A DNA stretch of 64,000 nt from Nitrososphaeria archaeon (GTDB lineage Archaea > Thermoproteota > Nitrososphaeria_A > Caldarchaeales > JAVZCJ01), in NCBI GenBank assembly GCA_041862235.1, contig JBGVSY010000035.1:16479-80478 (forward strand), written 5' to 3'. The notes below the pieces were generated by a model, which worked only from the letters and a program-made list of their open reading frames with translations, searched no databases and had not been told where the DNA came from. The position numbers were made by a program, and so were the translations under genes. Shown one piece after another: positions 12,869-62,602 of the stretch (its first letter is position 1; the number at the start of each line of letters is the position of its first letter).

Positions 12869-12992
12869 GGGCCCGTAGCCTAGAATGGATAGGGCGGCAG
12901 CCTCCTATCCTCCTTTGCGAGAGTCAGCTGCAGAGAGGTGGGACGAGCACCCCCTCGTGGAGATCGCGGGTTCAAATCCCGCCGGGCCCGCC
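12869..12992 (+). tRNA. tRNA-Arg (anticodon CCT, tentative), about 124 nt with two introns: a canonical one at 37/38 and a second in the variable-loop region
   Basis: Acceptor GGGCCCG pairs with CGGGCCC, then G and an encoded CCA. The D arm is GCCT/GGGC, the anticodon stem GCAGC/GCTGC, the loop CUCCUA, and the T arm GCGGG-TTCAAAT-CCCGC. There are about 18 extra nt after position 37 and about 29 extra nt between the anticodon stem and the T stem. Confidence 0.65.
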
Positions 12993-13100
12993 ATCGGCAA
13001 ATAATCAGATCGGCTTGTTCTCGGCTCTTCTTTAGGCGATCAGCTTGACTCAGATGGTTTCGGCCGTAGGATAAGACTTATTCAAGCCAGATCCCGCACA

Positions 13101-20614: not shown

Positions 20615-20727
20615 TGGTGCGGGGGGTGGGATTTGAACCCACGAACCCATCCGATCGACCCTGGTGAGTCGAGCTTCGGGACAAGGGCCTGAACCTTGCG
20701 CCGTTGACCAGGCTTGGCGACCCCCGC
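20615..20727 (-). tRNA. tRNA-Leu (anticodon CAG), type II, with about 22-25 extra nt in the variable region (possible intron) and an encoded CCA
   Basis: The minus-strand sequence is GCGGGGG...CAAGG-UUCAGGC-CCUUG...GUGGG-UUCAAAU-CCCAC-CCCCCGC-A-CCA. A TATA-like ctataaaa lies about 35 nt upstream. Confidence 0.7.
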
Positions 20728-27479: not shown

Positions 27480-27611
27480 AGCCCGGTGGTGTAGCGGCCA
27501 AGCATGGCGGGCTTTGGAGGGTGAATCCTGGAAGGGAACCCGGTGAGACCCGTCGATCGGGAGTTCGAAACTTGGAAGGGGAAGTTCCGAGCGACAGTCT
27601 CCCCCGGGCTA
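27480..27611 (+). tRNA. tRNA-Gln (anticodon TTG) with two introns: about 31 nt in the anticodon loop at 37/38 and about 27 nt in the T-loop at 59/60
   Basis: Acceptor AGCCCGG pairs with CCGGGCT. The D arm is GTGT...GCAT, the anticodon stem GCGGG/CCCGU, the loop CUUUGG[A], and the T stem GGGAG/CTCCC with TTCGAA[intron]T. Removing the insertions leaves a 74-nt cloverleaf. Confidence 0.7.
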
Positions 27612-27760
27612 CTATTCTTACCGATGATGTCAACCTAGCGCGGCTTCATATAACACCATGGGGTGAAGATTCTTCATAAATTTCTCCAAGCCCCTTTGTA
27701 GTTCTTCACAGATTCTTTGAGGCGCCTCTTAATATGTAGCAACTGATCAGATGAGTTGGT

Positions 27761-31927: not shown

Positions 31928-34225
31928 TCATGGCGGGGTAGAGATGTGGGACACGGTCAAGCGGTAGGGGAGATACTTATTGGTATGATAGATCACGTAT
32001 CCGCCTCCGGGCAGGGATACGCTGAACTCGTTAACTTCATGCTGAAGAACCGCGGCGGGAGTGAGCCATCCCCGAGAGAAGTCTTGAGTGTAAATCGCGA
32101 ACAGGAGCCTCCCTTGAAGATCGGGGGGTGTCACTCGTAGGATTTGATTGATATAAGAGACGTAATCCCATAAGGTCCTGTTCTGCTTCATGTAGAATAC
32201 CGAGTTGATCCAAGGAGATGTCTTCAGTACAAGGTAGTCAGTCAAACGTATCATTGTCTGGTATTGATCGTGGGGCTGAATGTCGCCCGCATCCTCAACG
32301 AGCAGCAACTTGCCGCTTTCCTTGAATCTCGGAGAAACGGCGCTCAACAGCCGCGTGATGCTGTTAAACGTTTCTGCTGGGACAGTACTGCTGCTGTCTG
32401 ACCAATCCATCAGAGACACCCCATCCATCTTGAAGTCATCGACTATTTGGAGCATCCTGTCCGCGAAATACTCAGCGTATATTTCTCCTCTGATGATTCC
32501 ATAGTCAGAGTCATCTTCCAAGCTCGCGTCGAAAGCGATCTCTCCAGTTCGGTTGAGCAACTCTGGATGACGGTTGAGCAACCAATCAGACTCGTATCCT
32601 TGGAAACCCAGATGCACATCAACTATCTTGGGTTGCAGAAAGATTCCTAGCACGACTTGGTACCTGAAATTATGCAACGTTCTTGTCAGAGACAATAAGT
32701 CCCCCTGCGTCCACTCGTAGGCGCCCAACTTGTATCTGAAATACTTCGATATGCTATCTGAGGAGTTGAATCCTGAGTACGTGTTGATGAAATCTGGTCC
32801 AAGCGGCAGAACAACATGCGTCAAGTTGTACATGGATTGAAATGTGTCCATGTCATACTCGAGTTCTGGTCTGAAGGCCGAATCCAGACTCTCTGACACC
32901 CCTACACGTATCGTTCTGTAGGGAAGAACCACGCCGCTCGGGGTGGGGTATACAATAACAAACACTAACAGAGTTGCGAGCAAGGACGTAACGAGGATCT
33001 TACCGCGACGGCTGAGAATCTGACGCCGCATGCCCATGAACCTTGACAGTGCAGATATCACACCGCTGGTCCAGTAAAGAGCGAACAGTATAGCAGCCGC
33101 CCCGATCACACCGAAGAACTGGTGGCGAGGTTCGGAGACCTTTCCAATCATGTCCAAGCTGAAGAAGTTGACCAGCGGAAGGGTAACGGCGATCCACCCC
33201 ATCGCGGTGATCACTAGGATCACGAAGAAGCTCTTCATCTTGACGTCTCCTCGCTGGAAATAGTCGATTATCACAAGCGGAAGAACCCATGTCACATACT
33301 GCACGTTGACTTTGGTTGAAGTCGCAAAAAAAGCTAGAATGATTAGGAACGATAGCAGATATATGCCGTTGTGAGGATCTTCAAACATCTTGTTGGCTCG
33401 ACGGTAAGAAATAAACACTATCAACAGCATAATCGCTGTGGCAACCGCTCCAAGGATCTGGCTGTTCACTATAGACGATAGGAAGACCCAGTATGTGAAC
33501 TGGCCCACCTGCCCGAAATGCTTAAGCAACGCATTCAGATACGCAAGAGGATCTCCAAGATATGGAATTGATATAAGCAGAGGAAATGAGATGAAAGGTA
33601 GTATGTGTTTCCAAAGGACTTTGGAAGGTCTTAGTTTGACGCGGCGGACAAGTAGAGGGATGGTTGCCATTAGAAGAAGGCTGGGGAAGATCTTCACAGC
33701 CGCTCCTACTCCCAAGAAGAATCCGGCGCACGAGTACCTTCGGTTCCAGAAGTAATAGAGTCCGAGGAGAGCGAAGAATATTGCTAGAGAATCAAACATG
33801 CCCCAGACAGCCGAGATGTAGAATGAGATAGGGTTGAAGAGCCAGAACGACATCGCGAGTAAAGCCTTCTTGTTGTCTTTCTGACTCTGACCCTTCGTCA
33901 TGATTTTCCAGATGAGAACACCGACGGCAATATCAGCCAGGATGGGGAGAAGCTTTATCGCCGCTACATAGGCCCCCAGGTTTTGAAGGGACCTAGTCAA
34001 GATGTAGGCCGTTGCACACCAGCCCAGCCAGACCGGAGGATACGTGTAAGAACCCCATGGGTAGTCCACCTCACGGACTTCATACACATTAGTGTGTTGC
34101 TCAACAGTTTGGCTTCCCACTGTTGTCCAGATGCTCACATCCCACGGGTGTCCGAAGAAAGGAGCCACAATCAATCTTATTAGGAAAGCACCTAGCAACA
34201 AAAGCAGGACTTTCTTTGGCATCAC
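31928..34225 (-). CDS. Large GT-C-fold membrane glycosyltransferase-like protein (PMT/ArnT-like) with a C-terminal soluble domain
   Basis: 765 aa, with about 13 N-terminal transmembrane helices followed by a large hydrophilic domain. No WWDYG motif is seen, so it is not called as AglB. Confidence 0.45.
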   Translation of the reverse strand: MMPKKVLLLLLGAFLIRLIVAPFFGHPWDVSIWTTVGSQTVEQHTNVYEVREVDYPWGSYTYPPVWLGWCATAYILTRSLQNLGAYVAAIKLLPILADIAVGVLIWKIMTKGQSQKDNKKALLAMSFWLFNPISFYISAVWGMFDSLAIFFALLGLYYFWNRRYSCAGFFLGVGAAVKIFPSLLLMATIPLLVRRVKLRPSKVLWKHILPFISFPLLISIPYLGDPLAYLNALLKHFGQVGQFTYWVFLSSIVNSQILGAVATAIMLLIVFISYRRANKMFEDPHNGIYLLSFLIILAFFATSTKVNVQYVTWVLPLVIIDYFQRGDVKMKSFFVILVITAMGWIAVTLPLVNFFSLDMIGKVSEPRHQFFGVIGAAAILFALYWTSGVISALSRFMGMRRQILSRRGKILVTSLLATLLVFVIVYPTPSGVVLPYRTIRVGVSESLDSAFRPELEYDMDTFQSMYNLTHVVLPLGPDFINTYSGFNSSDSISKYFRYKLGAYEWTQGDLLSLTRTLHNFRYQVVLGIFLQPKIVDVHLGFQGYESDWLLNRHPELLNRTGEIAFDASLEDDSDYGIIRGEIYAEYFADRMLQIVDDFKMDGVSLMDWSDSSSTVPAETFNSITRLLSAVSPRFKESGKLLLVEDAGDIQPHDQYQTMIRLTDYLVLKTSPWINSVFYMKQNRTLWDYVSYINQILRVTPPDLQGRLLFAIYTQDFSRGWLTPAAVLQHEVNEFSVSLPGGGYVIYHTNKYLPYRLTVSHISTPP

Positions 34226-35798: not shown

Positions 35799-35956
35799 GG
35801 TTCGAAGCCTCCAAGCATCATTGAAGACTTGATCAAGTCAGATATAAATAGCTTGAGAGGTGTGGCATGCTTAGTTCCTGAATTATCGTTGTACGGGTTC
35901 TCCGGGGGTTTCTTGCTTCAGCGATATGTCTAAGGTAAATGTAATACGGATTGATT

Positions 35957-36110
35957 GGCGCCGGGAGTGGGACTTCCAGTGGTCTTCACCACCTTTGAAC
36001 CCACGAGACCCCGAAGGGTCACAGGCTCTCTGGCCATTGTCATATAGGATCTCGAGGCCTGCGCTTCAGCGAGAGCTGAAACTGCGCTTTAACCACTCAG
36101 CCATCCCGGC
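35957..36110 (-). tRNA. tRNA-Ser (anticodon CGA) with three introns, near the 26/27 junction, in the anticodon loop at 37/38, and in the T-loop at 59/60. CCA is encoded.
   Basis: The minus-strand sequence has acceptor GCCGGGA pairing with UCCCGGC followed by GCCA, a D arm GCU...AGC-G, and an insert of about 23 nt flanked by a GCGCAG direct repeat. The anticodon stem is CAGGC/GCCUG with loop CUCGAG plus a 23-nt intron, a Ser-type variable arm ACCCUUCGGGGU, and a T stem GUGGG/CCCAC with UUCAAA, a 21-nt intron, then U. A TATA-like agtattaagg lies about 35 nt upstream. Confidence 0.65.
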
Positions 36111-36271
36111 GATTTCATCGTCTGAGAACGTTGCCTTAATACTTTGCTGAGGTGAGCGATGAGAGGCTGGGGTTTGTTTCAACTTAGCTAGCAGGTCAAT
36201 TGTAATTGATGAGTACACGTGGTTGGACGGGTTCCCAGTAGTTTATTGAAACACCGAAGTTATCCTGAAGA

Positions 36272-41784: not shown

Positions 41785-43254
41785 ATGGATGAGCGTGGTG
41801 TAAAGAATAGGCCCAACCTGAGGTTGCTGTCGAATGAGGTCATAGAGCGAATCCATGAGTCCTCTATTCGGTTGCTTGCGGACATAGGAGTAACAGTAGA
41901 AAGCCGTGAAGCTTTGGATATCCTAAGAGAAGGAGGTGCCAAGGTCGACGAAGTGAAGAGAAACGTAAAGATTCCTTCATCTTTAATCGAGGAAACATTG
42001 AGGAAGGCTCCTCATAGATTAACCATCTACAGCCGCGATAGAAGACATGATCTCAACCTTGCAGAAAACAACGTTTATTTTGATCCTGGATCAGCGGCTA
42101 TATCCATCTTTGATTATAGCAAGGCTTCACCAAGACCTCCCGCTCTCAAGGACGTAAAGGACTTCGCTGTTGTTGTGGATTCATTGAAGAATATTCATGC
42201 TCAAAGCACAGCACTAGTGCCAATGGATATGCCAGAGACTATGAGGGACAGGATTCGTCTCTATGTTGTTCTGAAGTACTCGACGAAGCCTATCGTAACT
42301 GGGGCCTTTACTGTTGATGGAATTTCAGACATGAAACACATGCTTGACATTGTTTCAGATAGCGGGTCAAAGAAGGCGGGGGCTATGGCTATTTTCGATG
42401 TTTGTCCGTCACCTCCCTTGAAGTGGAGTCACCTAGCTGCCAAGAATGTGATTGATTGTGCTGAAGCGGGTCTGCCCGTTGAGTTGGTCTCTATGCCCCA
42501 GATCTCGGCGACAGCACCAGCCACTCTCGCTGGGTGCCTAGTGCAACATAACGCTGAGGTGCTTTCAGGAATAGCGTTGGCTCAATTAGCATATCCCGGA
42601 ACACCAGTTATCTATGGGGGATCTCCCGCACTATTCGATCCGCGATACGGTACATCGGTAATGGGTTCTCCAGAAGTGTTACTTCTGTCCTGTGGATACG
42701 TAGATATGGCTAAACACTATGGACTACCCAGCCACGCCTACCTCGGTATGAGCGACGCCAAAGTGATTGATTACCAAGCTGGTTTCGAAAGCGCATTCGG
42801 GGCTTTGATGGGTGCTTTGAAAGGGATAAACATCATTTCTGGCGCAGGTATGATCGAGTTTGAGTCTTGTCAAAGTTTGGAGAAACTGGTGCTTGATGAT
42901 GAGATATGTGGTTATGTACATAGGGTTGCCACAGGCATCGACGTGACTGAGGAGACTCTAGCCAACCAAATCTTTCAAGAGTGTGTGGCAAAGGGACATT
43001 TCCTTTCACATAAGCATACAGTCAGGTGGCTAAGAAGAGAGCAATACATACCAAGTGAGTTGGTTGACCGCAGGGATAGGAGCATGTGGAGAGCTCTCGG
43101 TAGGCTTGATGCCCTGAAACGAGCACGAACACGAGTGGAACAAATACTCTCTGACCATCAACCGGAACCTCTAGAGCCCGACATCGAGAAAGAACTCACC
43201 CGTTTTGCCGTTTCGATCTGTAGATCACATGGAGTCCCCCGCCTGACACTCTAA
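41785..43254 (+). CDS. MttB-superfamily methyltransferase (trimethylamine/quaternary-amine:corrinoid methyltransferase family) without pyrrolysine
   Basis: Uninterrupted 489-aa ORF of MttB length and context, with no in-frame TAG. Confidence 0.7.
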   Translation: MDERGVKNRPNLRLLSNEVIERIHESSIRLLADIGVTVESREALDILREGGAKVDEVKRNVKIPSSLIEETLRKAPHRLTIYSRDRRHDLNLAENNVYFDPGSAAISIFDYSKASPRPPALKDVKDFAVVVDSLKNIHAQSTALVPMDMPETMRDRIRLYVVLKYSTKPIVTGAFTVDGISDMKHMLDIVSDSGSKKAGAMAIFDVCPSPPLKWSHLAAKNVIDCAEAGLPVELVSMPQISATAPATLAGCLVQHNAEVLSGIALAQLAYPGTPVIYGGSPALFDPRYGTSVMGSPEVLLLSCGYVDMAKHYGLPSHAYLGMSDAKVIDYQAGFESAFGALMGALKGINIISGAGMIEFESCQSLEKLVLDDEICGYVHRVATGIDVTEETLANQIFQECVAKGHFLSHKHTVRWLRREQYIPSELVDRRDRSMWRALGRLDALKRARTRVEQILSDHQPEPLEPDIEKELTRFAVSICRSHGVPRLTL

Positions 43255-49435: not shown

Positions 49436-51094
49436 TTGAATAGAGCCTCATCAATCCTACTCGCGGTGACGCTGGTTCTCGTGTTGACCTCCACCTTAAG
49501 CGCCCGCGTGGCTCGAGCGTCCGTCGTTCAGAGTACGCCCACCAGCATATCTAGGCTCGTCTCCGTCTCGAACTACGGTCTCACGTTTATCACGGATGAG
49601 ATCATCCTTCAAGAAGGAAGCTCCATATCCATAGGCATTCCATCAGAATACAAGGGTAATTTAGTCGAATACTACACCGCCGATCCGGAAGTAACGGTAG
49701 CTGCGTTCACTGATTCGCAACACCCTAACATTATCTTCCTTAATGTAACATCGCAAAGCCCTCGGCACCAGCTGAGTTTAGTGACCGTTCTTCGGGGAGT
49801 AATCTGGCAGGAGATGTCGGGGGCGTTCAACCTTACGTTCCCTGAAACTCCTGTGCTACTACAAGAGCTTCAAACCTTCAACATATCGATCGTGCTTCCA
49901 AAGGACGCAGACATCAAGATACCGCCCGTTGGCTTCAACTTGACAAAAACAAACGAAACGGTGACGCTCTACACAGAAGCGAGAGCCCTAGCGCCTGTAA
50001 CGAAAGATGATTTATCCATCTCCTTCAACTCGGAAACAATTGACTTGTTCTCAGTAAGGAGCGACGAAGTCACCATAAACTTCGACGGAGAGCTAAATAT
50101 ACAAGAAAAACTCTGCGTCACATTCCAAGGAACGGGGGAGACAGACACATTAAGCTTACGCATACCCAAAGAATCGCAGATCACCCTGCTGAAAGGACTG
50201 CTTGGTGAACTGGATAGAACGGTGGGAAACGAAAGCCAAGGCCTAGTAACCGTGGCGGTCAAGCTCAGACAAGCTATCACAAGGGGAGAGAACGCCTCTT
50301 TGACAATACAATACAAGGCGCCGGTCGAGGCGTTCACAACAGAATCCGACGGGGAACACATCATTCACTTCCCTCAGTCTCTGAACAGTACGTACAATGA
50401 TTACAAGATATGGATCATCTTTCCTTCTACATATGTTCTCAAAAAATTCGAACCCAAACCCCAGGGGTTCATTAGAGAGGACCCATACCGTGTCAAACTC
50501 ATGTATCAAAGAGAAGACACTGCGCTAAAGAGACAAAACAGCGCCCAACTCCATTATGAGATGTCATTCAGCATGTCGCAGTACTACAGTTGGATCTGGG
50601 GTGCCGCGATCCTCCTCGGAGCAATAGGGCTAGCAACACGTCTCACACCCGTAGCAGGCCTCAAACCTGCAGCGATGGCGCCCGAAACCAAGAGACTTAT
50701 CGAGGAGGCACTGGAAATATACGTTCGAACCAATAAAATGAGGCAACAGGTGTTAACACGATCAACAGTCGAAACTGCGAGAAAAGGAGACACCGCGCTT
50801 CTAAGAGAAAGCATGCGAACAATCAAAAGAGACAGTGAACGAATGAGGGATCCATTAAGAAGGTTAAGAAAGGTGCAGCCAGCGCTAGCGTCCACTCTCG
50901 CAGAACTAGAAAAAACGGAGGGCGTGATCCAAGAACTCCTTAGCGCTTACAATCGAGTGAATGAAGATCTAAGGAGAGGCAGAATTTCTAAGAAAGTTGG
51001 ACAAAGGATCCAGAGAGAGTACAGCAAACAAATACACGGACACATAAGCACGGAAGAGGAACTGGTTGAAGAAATCAAAAGAAGTGCAGAATAG
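49436..51094 (+). CDS. Membrane-anchored surface protein (signal peptide, large ectodomain, one transmembrane helix, cytoplasmic coiled-coil tail)
   Basis: N-terminal ILLAVTLVLVLTSTLSA, many N-x-S/T sequons in the ectodomain, a transmembrane helix WIWGAAILLGAIGLA, and a K/E/R-rich C-terminus. Confidence 0.55.
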   Translation: MNRASSILLAVTLVLVLTSTLSARVARASVVQSTPTSISRLVSVSNYGLTFITDEIILQEGSSISIGIPSEYKGNLVEYYTADPEVTVAAFTDSQHPNIIFLNVTSQSPRHQLSLVTVLRGVIWQEMSGAFNLTFPETPVLLQELQTFNISIVLPKDADIKIPPVGFNLTKTNETVTLYTEARALAPVTKDDLSISFNSETIDLFSVRSDEVTINFDGELNIQEKLCVTFQGTGETDTLSLRIPKESQITLLKGLLGELDRTVGNESQGLVTVAVKLRQAITRGENASLTIQYKAPVEAFTTESDGEHIIHFPQSLNSTYNDYKIWIIFPSTYVLKKFEPKPQGFIREDPYRVKLMYQREDTALKRQNSAQLHYEMSFSMSQYYSWIWGAAILLGAIGLATRLTPVAGLKPAAMAPETKRLIEEALEIYVRTNKMRQQVLTRSTVETARKGDTALLRESMRTIKRDSERMRDPLRRLRKVQPALASTLAELEKTEGVIQELLSAYNRVNEDLRRGRISKKVGQRIQREYSKQIHGHISTEEELVEEIKRSAE

Positions 51095-62023: not shown

Positions 62024-62602
62024 TCAAACGTTGATCAGTTCGACGAGGGCAGACAAATAGTAGACTATCTCGTTTCGACGATCCACGACCGACAGAATCA
62101 CCTTCTTCTTTAGCGCTCTGGAAACAGCAAGAAGGTGTTTTAGGCTTTCCGCACCGACATTTTTTCCCTCTACCACGGGCACCACTAAGAACTTTGCGGT
62201 GTCGGTTTCGTAAGATCCCCTCTCGAACACTCGAAACCTGAAGTCTGGACCGAAGCCTTCCTTTACTACATAGCCTCGCTTCCTGAGATCCCTGAAGACT
62301 ACATAGTCTGTCCAGATGTTTGGACTATTCGATCGATCGATCGATAGAAGTTGGTTGAAGTTTACGGTGTCTTTGTTTTTATCGGTAACTTCGATTTTCT
62401 GTCTTTCTAGCAGGTACAATGCCTCACAGGGGTGGAGAACTATCTTTCCGGTATGTTCATCTTTTTCTCCGTATCCTCTAGCAAGGTATGCGCTGCTTAG
62501 CTCGGTTATCTCTGCAGTTATCGTATCTCCGTCTAGGTGGACCGTGAAGGGTTGTTCCGGTAACTCTGTTTCCTGCTTGCCCACCTTTCTTCTCCAGATC
62601 AT
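62024..62602 (-). CDS. endA: tRNA-splicing endonuclease (EndA) catalytic subunit
   Basis: C-terminal catalytic-domain pattern YVVFRDLRKRGYVVKEGFGPDFRFRVFERG, 192 aa. Confidence 0.65.
   Translation of the reverse strand: MIWRRKVGKQETELPEQPFTVHLDGDTITAEITELSSAYLARGYGEKDEHTGKIVLHPCEALYLLERQKIEVTDKNKDTVNFNQLLSIDRSNSPNIWTDYVVFRDLRKRGYVVKEGFGPDFRFRVFERGSYETDTAKFLVVPVVEGKNVGAESLKHLLAVSRALKKKVILSVVDRRNEIVYYLSALVELINV

Follow-up and report, generated by a model that had tools for sequence, protein, structure and literature searches.

A 64-kb stretch of archaeal DNA (64,000 nucleotides of contig JBGVSY010000035.1, the whole of which we call the window) carries on its minus strand a tRNA-Ser(CGA) gene that is interrupted three times. 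We conclude, with a probability of roughly 0.88, that this is a functional, expressed tRNA-Ser(CGA) whose three insertions are protein-spliced introns of the bulge-helix-bulge (BHB) type, located at 29/30, at the canonical site 37/38 and at 59/60, so that two of the three lie at non-canonical sites. A preliminary description of the locus had recognized a tRNA-Ser(CGA) with all cloverleaf elements present and three introns, two of them non-canonical; the identity was borne out by the ARAGORN call on the spliced molecule, and the number and siting of the introns are supported by motif geometry, in-silico splicing, orthologues and natural comparators.

The gene extends over 36110..35956 of the minus strand, and its 155-nt precursor, which we numbered from p1 at window position 36110, starts with GCCGGGAUGGCUGAGUGGUUAAAGCGCAG, finishes with UCCCACUCCCGGCGCCA and consists of four exons and three introns. 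Exon 1 (p1-29; 36082..36110) holds the 5' strand of the acceptor stem, the D-arm, position 26 and positions 27-29 of the anticodon stem, and is followed by intron 1 (p30-52; 36059..36081), 23 nt at site 29/30. The short exon 2 (p53-60; 36051..36058) supplies anticodon-stem positions 30-31 and loop positions 32-37, with the anticodon CGA at p57-59, and ends at intron 2 (p61-83; 36028..36050), 23 nt at 37/38. Exon 3 (p84-117; 35994..36027) contains position 38, the 3' strand of the anticodon stem, the variable arm, the 5' strand of the T-stem and T-loop positions 54-59; intron 3 (p118-138; 35973..35993), 21 nt at the T-loop site 59/60, separates it from exon 4 (p139-155; 35956..35972), which carries U60, the 3' strands of the T-stem and acceptor stem, G73 and CCA. 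The inserts had been estimated at about 23, 23 and 21 nt, in agreement with these lengths, and the range previously given for the gene, 35957-36110, had the locus right while falling one base short, as it omitted the final A of CCA.

In-silico removal of p30-52, p61-83 and p118-138 yielded an 88-mer that ARAGORN called as tRNA-Ser(cga) with a full cloverleaf. The spliced molecule is a class II tRNA with a 7-bp acceptor stem, a 3-bp D-stem in a class II D-arm, an anticodon arm (CAGGC-CUCGAGA-GCCUG) with a 5-bp stem plus a G.U pair, a variable arm of a 5-bp stem and a UUCG loop (GACCC-UUCG-GGGUC), a T-arm reading GUGGG-UUCAAAU-CCCAC, and a G73 discriminator followed by an encoded CCA. Cloverleaf, long variable arm, serine anticodon and G73, i.e. 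the features of a class II serine tRNA, are thus all found once the inserts are removed. The unspliced gene gave no ARAGORN call, as was the case for every other part of the 64-kb window, and the Rfam tRNA model did not match the locus even at E = 10. In a SPLITS-like sweep of both strands, in which BHB candidates were deleted in sets of one to three and ARAGORN was run on every product, positive controls included, tRNA-Ser(CGA) was recovered only after three removals, and at identical junctions. Rfam matches to mir-35, snoZ278 and mir-5360 near the locus lay far under the gathering scores and are explained by hairpins of the tRNA and its introns.

To score the splice motifs, all junctions giving the same mature sequence were compared with the 3-4-3 geometry, in which an outer helix h of the exons, a 4-bp central helix H flanked by a 3-nt bulge on either strand and an inner helix h' of the intron follow one another, both cuts falling after the second bulge nucleotide; motifs were classed as strict (hBHBh') or relaxed (HBh' or hBH) (PMC3239211, PMC5829648). 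A single register fitted for each of the three inserts. Intron 3 has a strict hBHBh' motif at a unique junction, with H UUCA/UGGA paired at 4/4 positions, bulges AA|G and AG|U, the 5-bp T-stem as h and an h' of 5 bp (GUGGU/ACCAC). The UUCAAAU consensus of the T-loop fixes this junction on independent grounds; as the junction also fits perfectly, it validates the geometry applied to introns 1 and 2. Intron 1 forms a relaxed HBh' motif with H GCGC/GCGC paired at 4/4 positions (p24-27 with p47-50), bulges AG|U and AG|G, an h' of 6 bp and no h (0 bp). The motif of intron 2 is imperfect: its H, CUCG/CCAG, pairs at 3/4 positions and contains a C34.C mismatch, both bulges are AG|A, h measures 7 bp and h' 2 bp; 37/38 is nonetheless the sole register of five with an h of at least 5 bp. 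The check proposed with the preliminary description, a BHB motif at each junction, turned out positive at all three, with the reservation noted for intron 2, and the earlier placements of the second insert at 37/38 and of the third within the T-loop at 59/60 hold.

Shuffling the inserts while keeping the exons fixed produced an equal or better motif at a frequency of 5e-5 for intron 3, of 1.5e-4 for intron 1 with all seven registers allowed, and of 0.015 for intron 2; a 4-kb control stretch contained no strict BHB motif. The motifs of introns 1 and 3 are well beyond chance expectation.

The placement of intron 1 was ambiguous at first. The first insert had been described as lying between the D-arm and the anticodon stem and as flanked by a GCGCAG direct repeat; the repeat is indeed there, with copies at p24-29 and p47-52, and in the window copy of the gene it gives an identical mature sequence for seven registers, which leaves room for a junction anywhere from 23/24 to 28/29. 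Of these registers 29/30 is the sole one with an H of 4/4, the other six reaching at most 3/4 with an h' of at most 3 bp (6 bp at 29/30), and because only junction 29/30 yields a BHB the insert is placed inside the 5' strand of the anticodon stem and not between the stem and the D-arm. The repeat itself is a by-product of the palindromic central helix, followed by AG in each bulge. An orthologue, L083, settles the point: its variant G52T turns the 3' repeat copy into GCGCAT, so that only 29/30 preserves G29-C41 in the mature tRNA, and any junction 5' of it would set U29 opposite C41. A different number of introns was also suggested by ARAGORN, which returned SeC(tca) when p43-104 and the T-loop insert were removed together, i.e. 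a two-intron 'tRNA-SeC(UCA)'. That product would discard 62 nt including the invariant anticodon arm and the variable arm, and its 'anticodon' loop would fall on a segment with the variable sites p37 and p39; we rejected it as an artefact of the removal of exon sequence. A wrong number or placement of the introns, in either form, is thus quite improbable, although it is the best of the alternatives.

Comparison with relatives points to constraint on both exons and introns. The tRNA-Ser(CGA) gene lies 160 nt downstream of the gene for phosphoglycerate kinase (PGK), and close PGK homologues (83-92% identity) were found on metagenome contigs with the shared gene order PGK, gap, Elf1, PcrB. Each PGK-Elf1 gap examined contained the same 155-nt tRNA gene at 94-98% identity and with zero indels, and when JGI metagenomes were scanned for the 5' exon, nine loci of the same layout emerged, one of which (L096) is contig L089. 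In total, at least 12 metagenome samples provided 16 orthologous copies with 9 distinct sequences; every copy is 155 nt long and free of indels. Eighteen sites vary, 15 among the 67 intron nucleotides as against 3 among the 88 exon nucleotides (Fisher p = 3e-4); exon 2 is identical in all orthologues, and the variable exon sites are p16 in the D-loop (exon 1), p96 in the variable-arm loop (exon 3) and the last A of CCA (exon 4), which is T in L106 and L107. Within the introns variation is again unevenly distributed, affecting 3 of 37 helix positions compared with 12 of 30 positions in loops or bulges (p = 0.003). The helix changes keep pairing, G-C becoming G.U at p24-p50 in three sequences and U-A becoming U.G at p120-p131 and p123-p128 in h' of intron 3, so that all 43 modelled pairs are 100% paired in the nine distinct sequences and no variant breaks a modelled helix.

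Further comparators came from other lineages. Ser(CGA) genes with an identical D-arm are uninterrupted at positions 26-31 and in the T-loop and have only the 37/38 intron; such genes serve as natural controls without introns 1 and 3 and lend indirect support to the excision of both. In nine independent other-lineage Ser(CGA) genes, the 37/38 intron carries H CTCG/CA[GA]G with the same C34 mismatch and an AGA bulge, and a Ser(UGA) gene has a perfect H. Since the same mismatch occurs in nine other genes, the imperfect second motif is a recurrent, tolerated trait of the Ser(CGA) isoacceptor. Among the GTDB species representatives searched by synteny, the PGK relatives were 51-54% identical, belonged to Bathyarchaeia-labelled metagenome-assembled genomes (MAGs) and had no tRNA downstream.

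Serine tRNA genes of other metagenomic archaea are interrupted as well: L095 (9101-9320, plus strand) encodes a tRNA-Ser(GGA) whose intron at 59/60 measures 102 nt, L101 (minus strand, near 2736 when read in reverse orientation) a tRNA-Ser(GCU) whose intron at 59/60 measures 41 nt, and in the Ser genes of L098 and L103 the anticodon stem-loop contains large insertions. In several uncultured lineages, to judge from these genes, 59/60 seems to be a site at which Ser tRNAs are repeatedly interrupted.

Upstream of the gene we found a TATA-like box, TATTAA (36136..36141, minus strand), 26-31 nt from the mature 5' end and inside the conserved CAGCAAAGTATTAAGG. The box is kept in L083-L086 and L089, L087 has the equivalent TTAAAATA, and all four tRNA genes of the window have an A/T box at -24 to -34. 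A promoter at TATTAA with a very short leader would fit archaeal promoters. These data bear on whether the locus could be a decaying pseudogene, a tRNA-Ser disrupted by three insertions and left without a functional product. Such a gene would be silent to standard detectors, as this one is, might well have an imperfect motif at its second intron, and could be spared by the cell if other Ser isoacceptors partly covered the UCG codon. Decay is, however, hard to reconcile with the state of the locus: every exon stem is intact, the nine distinct orthologues lack indels and differ in their exons at only three loop or terminal sites as opposed to 15 in the introns, the intron changes avoid or preserve the BHB helices, the upstream box is conserved, and all three inserts have excision geometry. 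Moreover, the other three tRNA genes of the window are similarly interrupted, so that interruption is the normal build of a tRNA gene in this genome. We consider a pseudogene very unlikely, marginally more so than a misplaced intron.

If the gene is functional, transcription from a TATA-box promoter about 28 nt upstream would give a precursor of about 155 nt, in which each intron would be presented by two 3-nt bulges separated by a 4-bp helix; the archaeal splicing endonuclease would cut after the second nucleotide of each bulge, and the exon ends would be joined by an RtcB-type ligase, as in the established pathway (PMC5829648), the expected end product being an 88-nt class II tRNA. Folding of the precursor adds an order to this scheme. 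The precursor is more stable than its shuffles (z = -3.6), and the cost of the individual motifs over the minimum free energy (MFE) structure rises from +2.8 kcal/mol for the motif of intron 3 through +5.7 kcal/mol for that of intron 1 in the full precursor to +10.7 kcal/mol for that of intron 2, while forcing all three together costs +20.9 kcal/mol. The three motifs cannot coexist because H of the first uses nt 24-27 and so competes with the D-stem and with the helix supporting the second motif. In the MFE structure of the precursor the 3' CAG copy in intron 1 replaces the 5' strand of the anticodon stem and thereby provides h for intron 2; after removal of intron 2, all 10 pairs of the first motif are in the MFE structure. 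Because the motifs are mutually incompatible, splicing is probably ordered, the folding model predicting that introns 2 and 3 leave first and intron 1 after them. Dependence between closely spaced archaeal introns is known (PMC8450103).

The excision of such introns calls for a suitable endonuclease, and the preliminary description had pointed to an EndA gene at 62024-62602 and to the need for an enzyme of relaxed specificity. The open reading frame (ORF) at 62024..62602 (minus strand; 192 aa) does belong to the EndA family, with PF02778, PF01974 and TIGR00324, the last at 68 bits versus a cutoff of 59.6. Two residues of the catalytic Tyr-His-Lys triad are missing, however. When the protein is compared with M. 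jannaschii EndA (1a79), Tyr115 is matched by Phe (FRVFERG in the window protein, FRLYERG in EndA) and His125 by Thr (ETDTAKFLV and DKEHSVYLV, respectively), so that only Lys is kept, at the position of Lys156. Across 16 aligned members of the family, with identities as low as 32%, His is present in 0/16 and Phe replaces Tyr in 13/16, and the segment VDRRNE..VYY is conserved. The M. kandleri EndA-like protein (5X89, first half), a biochemically defined structural unit, likewise has Phe for Tyr and no His (FRAF-RG vs FRVFERG here), and like this beta unit (PDB 5X89, PMC5829648) the window protein retains both EndA-fold domains and the C-terminal L10-like VD..E..YY. By its sequence the protein is most likely a structural beta-type subunit of a heteromeric (alpha-beta)2 endonuclease, whose catalytic alpha subunit would be encoded elsewhere in the genome. 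It scores below the cutoffs of the NCBIfam beta-subunit models, and its sequence similarity to catalytic alpha units, at 55 bits, exceeds that to the beta unit of M. kandleri, at 26 bits; it may be an independently derived structural paralogue.

As introns at non-canonical positions occur together with a relaxed motif, a broad-specificity (alpha-beta)2 endonuclease is implied, in line with the relaxed specificity proposed earlier. Cleavage of relaxed motifs at non-canonical sites is known only for the (alpha-beta)2 and epsilon2 enzymes (PMC5829648, PMC3239211), and the (alpha-beta)2 enzyme is found in Thaumarchaeota, Crenarchaeota and Aigarchaeota, Korarchaeota being the exception without it within TACK (PMC5829648). 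Automatic annotation would name the window protein 'tRNA-intron lyase'; proteins of the same family in Nitrososphaerota MAGs, which NCBI lists under that name, are probably mis-annotated structural subunits, to judge by the catalytic residues they lack.

Retention of the inserts in the mature RNA as an expansion segment, their removal by a mechanism other than BHB splicing (such as self-splicing) or an artefact of metagenome assembly is hardly credible, even though the sole endonuclease homologue in the window is without catalytic residues, since 21-23 nt is far too short for a group I or group II intron, a retained 21-nt T-loop or 23-nt anticodon-stem insert would destroy the L-shape, the geometry exactly matches the endonuclease substrate, the structural subunit implies that a catalytic partner exists, and independent assemblies of many samples, among the JGI, Logan and NCBI data, gave the same 155-nt sequence, which rules out a chimera.

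Several points count against a functional gene with three protein-spliced introns. The motif of intron 2 is weak in three respects, the C.C mismatch in H, an h' of only 2 bp and its +10.7 kcal/mol over the MFE. The catalytic alpha subunit is not in the window, where no second EndA homologue was found, and neither are the specificity loop and RtcB. Expression and the cleavage sites are predictions from the DNA sequence. Furthermore, no double compensatory change was seen in any helix among the nine distinct sequences, which are 94-98% identical; because this divergence is too low, the support they give lies in the placement of substitutions and is not true covariation. The orthologues, then, argue for constraint without true covariation.

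The host was identified from the proteins of the window. Its HisRS is 88% identical to a protein of an 'Aigarchaeota archaeon' (NCBI lineage Nitrososphaerota), the next tier, at about 50% identity, is uniformly made up of Thaumarchaeota, Nitrososphaerota and Caldarchaeum, and the neighbours of the EndA-family protein come from Nitrososphaerota MAGs. PGK gave a weak pointer to Bathyarchaeia (51-54% identity); we rejected that affiliation, as the signal is specific to this gene and is contradicted by HisRS and the EndA neighbours. The exact window proteins matched only in metagenome assemblies. The window has a GC content of about 50% and encodes FtsZ, Orc1/Cdc6 and an MttB-family methyltransferase; FtsZ is not known from Thermoproteales. 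Protein similarity thus identifies the host as an uncultured Nitrososphaerota/Aigarchaeota-affiliated archaeon, not a member of Thermoproteales or Korarchaeota, the groups with which the intron pattern had at first been linked.

PGK and HisRS point to different phyla, and within the clade PGK may have evolved along a path of its own. At NCBI the same 90% protein clusters are labelled both 'Nitrososphaerota archaeon' and 'Candidatus Aenigmatarchaeota archaeon'; the submitter-given taxonomy of these MAGs is unreliable.

The tRNA-Ser(CGA) gene is not alone in being interrupted. Of the tRNA genes that the sweep proposed for the window, exactly four are credible; each is interrupted, three of them by more than one intron, and 5 of their 8 introns are at non-canonical sites. 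The tRNA-Arg(CCU) gene (12869-12993, plus strand) has an 18-nt intron at 37/38 (12908-12925; H 3/4) and a 29-nt intron at 45/46 (12934-12962) of the HBh' type, with H CUGC/GUGG and both bulges AG|A; the spliced 78-mer was called tRNA-Arg(cct), and the gene, which ARAGORN missed, gave an Rfam match of 45 bits. The tRNA-Leu(CAG) gene (20615-20727, minus strand), matched by Rfam in the permissive scan only, has a single 25-nt intron in the loop of the variable arm (20649-20673) with a strict hBHBh' motif (H CCGA/UCGG, h 3 bp, h' 7 bp), and its spliced 88-mer was called tRNA-Leu(cag). The tRNA-Gln(UUG) gene (27480-27612, plus strand; CCA not encoded) resembles tRNA-Ser(CGA) in having introns at 37/38 (30 nt, 27518-27547) and 59/60 (28 nt, 27570-27597); it was missed by both ARAGORN and Rfam, apart from a spurious Rfam mir-5360 match at 27536-27612, and L099 carries an orthologue with the same two introns. 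Two other products were discarded, namely a 'tRNA-Ala(ggc)' from the sweep, an artefact of the removal of exon sequence, and a two-intron 'tRNA-Leu(GAG)' in L084 and L091, which showed mismatches in the acceptor stem, had a degenerate D-arm and was without the T-loop consensus.

The intron load of about 2 per gene, which with four genes in one 64-kb window could be an accident of sampling, compares with a mean of 0.84 introns per tRNA gene in Thermoproteales and a maximum of 1.54, in P. calidifontis (PMC8450103). No uninterrupted tRNA was found in an additional 84 kb of same-clade contigs. That the clade went through a burst of tRNA-intron gain of its own, by which most or all of its tRNA genes came to be interrupted, is a speculative extrapolation from four genes in one 64-kb window and seems to us doubtful at present. 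The 3' bulge reads AG|N in 6 of the 8 window introns. In sequence the introns are dissimilar to one another: the best of 28 intron pairs reached p = 0.013, which loses its significance on correction for multiple testing. For Thermoproteales, transposition is indicated by similar introns that different tRNAs share; the dissimilarity of the eight window introns hints at another mode of gain.

Taken singly, the features of the gene are documented: 29/30 and 59/60 are known intron positions and tRNAs with up to three introns have been described (PMC4090602, PMC4033280, PMC8450103), while multi-intron tRNAs are known in Aigarchaeota (PMC3293823) and Thaumarchaeota (PMC8450103). The gene shares with the multi-intron tRNAs of Thermoproteales a set of three short BHB introns, of which one is canonical and the two others are non-canonical and lie within or close to the anticodon stem and in the T-loop, as well as the mixture of strict and relaxed motifs, the failure of standard tRNA finders and overlapping motifs that would require sequential removal; it differs in that the host belongs to another phylum-level lineage and encodes FtsZ. 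In Pyrobaculum islandicum the tRNA-Pro(UGG) gene is interrupted at 25/26, 37/38 and 56/57 (Sugahara et al. 2007, 2008, cited after PMC4090602, PMC4033280, PMC8450103), whereas here the isoacceptor is Ser(CGA) and the combination of sites 29/30, 37/38 and 59/60. Candidatus Caldiarchaeum subterraneum, from the same broad clade, has introns in the D-, V- and T-arms as well as at 37/38, some of its genes having more than one; in that organism 13/45 tRNA genes are interrupted and 3 are multi-intron (PMC3293823), compared with 4/4 and 3/4 here, and HisRS identity to Caldarchaeum-type proteins of only about 46-50% marks the present host as a different, distant lineage. A 59/60 intron is also present in the pre-tRNA-Cys(GCA) and pre-tRNA-Pro(GGG) of ARMAN-2, where it is cleaved in vitro by an epsilon2 endonuclease, so that for this site a BHB has been proved experimentally to be a true substrate (PMC3239211); unlike ARMAN-2, one of the DPANN archaea, the window encodes a separate beta-type subunit, implying an (alpha-beta)2 enzyme.

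The arrangement is therefore textbook for intron-rich archaea and leaves the knowledge of tRNA splicing unchanged; the new elements are the host lineage, the particular combination of sites and, as a hint from four genes, an unusually high intron load. It extends heavy disruption of tRNA genes, including the three-intron maximum, to an uncultured, moderately GC-rich Nitrososphaerota/Aigarchaeota-affiliated lineage of about 50% GC and contributes one more case to the question of how (alpha-beta)2 endonucleases and disrupted tRNA genes co-evolved. The overlapping motifs of introns 1 and 2 offer a natural substrate with which to test ordered splicing. There is also a practical side, in that standard annotation with ARAGORN and Rfam at the gathering threshold finds at most 1 of the 4 tRNA genes of the window, and a permissive Rfam scan 2 of 4, so that MAGs of this clade will seem tRNA-poor or incomplete without BHB-aware tools.

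Among the remaining features of the window, ORFs at 31928-34225 (minus strand, 765 aa) and 49436-51094 (plus strand, 552 aa) had no Pfam or NCBIfam match. The MttB-family methyltransferase is encoded by an uninterrupted ORF of 489 aa at 41785-43254 (plus strand), which matched Pfam MTTB at 1.9e-97 and scored 419 bits with TIGR02369, below the cutoff of 525. Inside this ORF, at 42748-42847, lies a sub-threshold Rfam match to PYLIS_3 (30 bits vs 38). As the ORF has no in-frame stop, its product is probably a non-pyrrolysine member of the MttB superfamily. The relatives carry genes for URO-D (MtaA-like) and B12-binding proteins near PGK; these genes suggest methylotrophic corrinoid metabolism.

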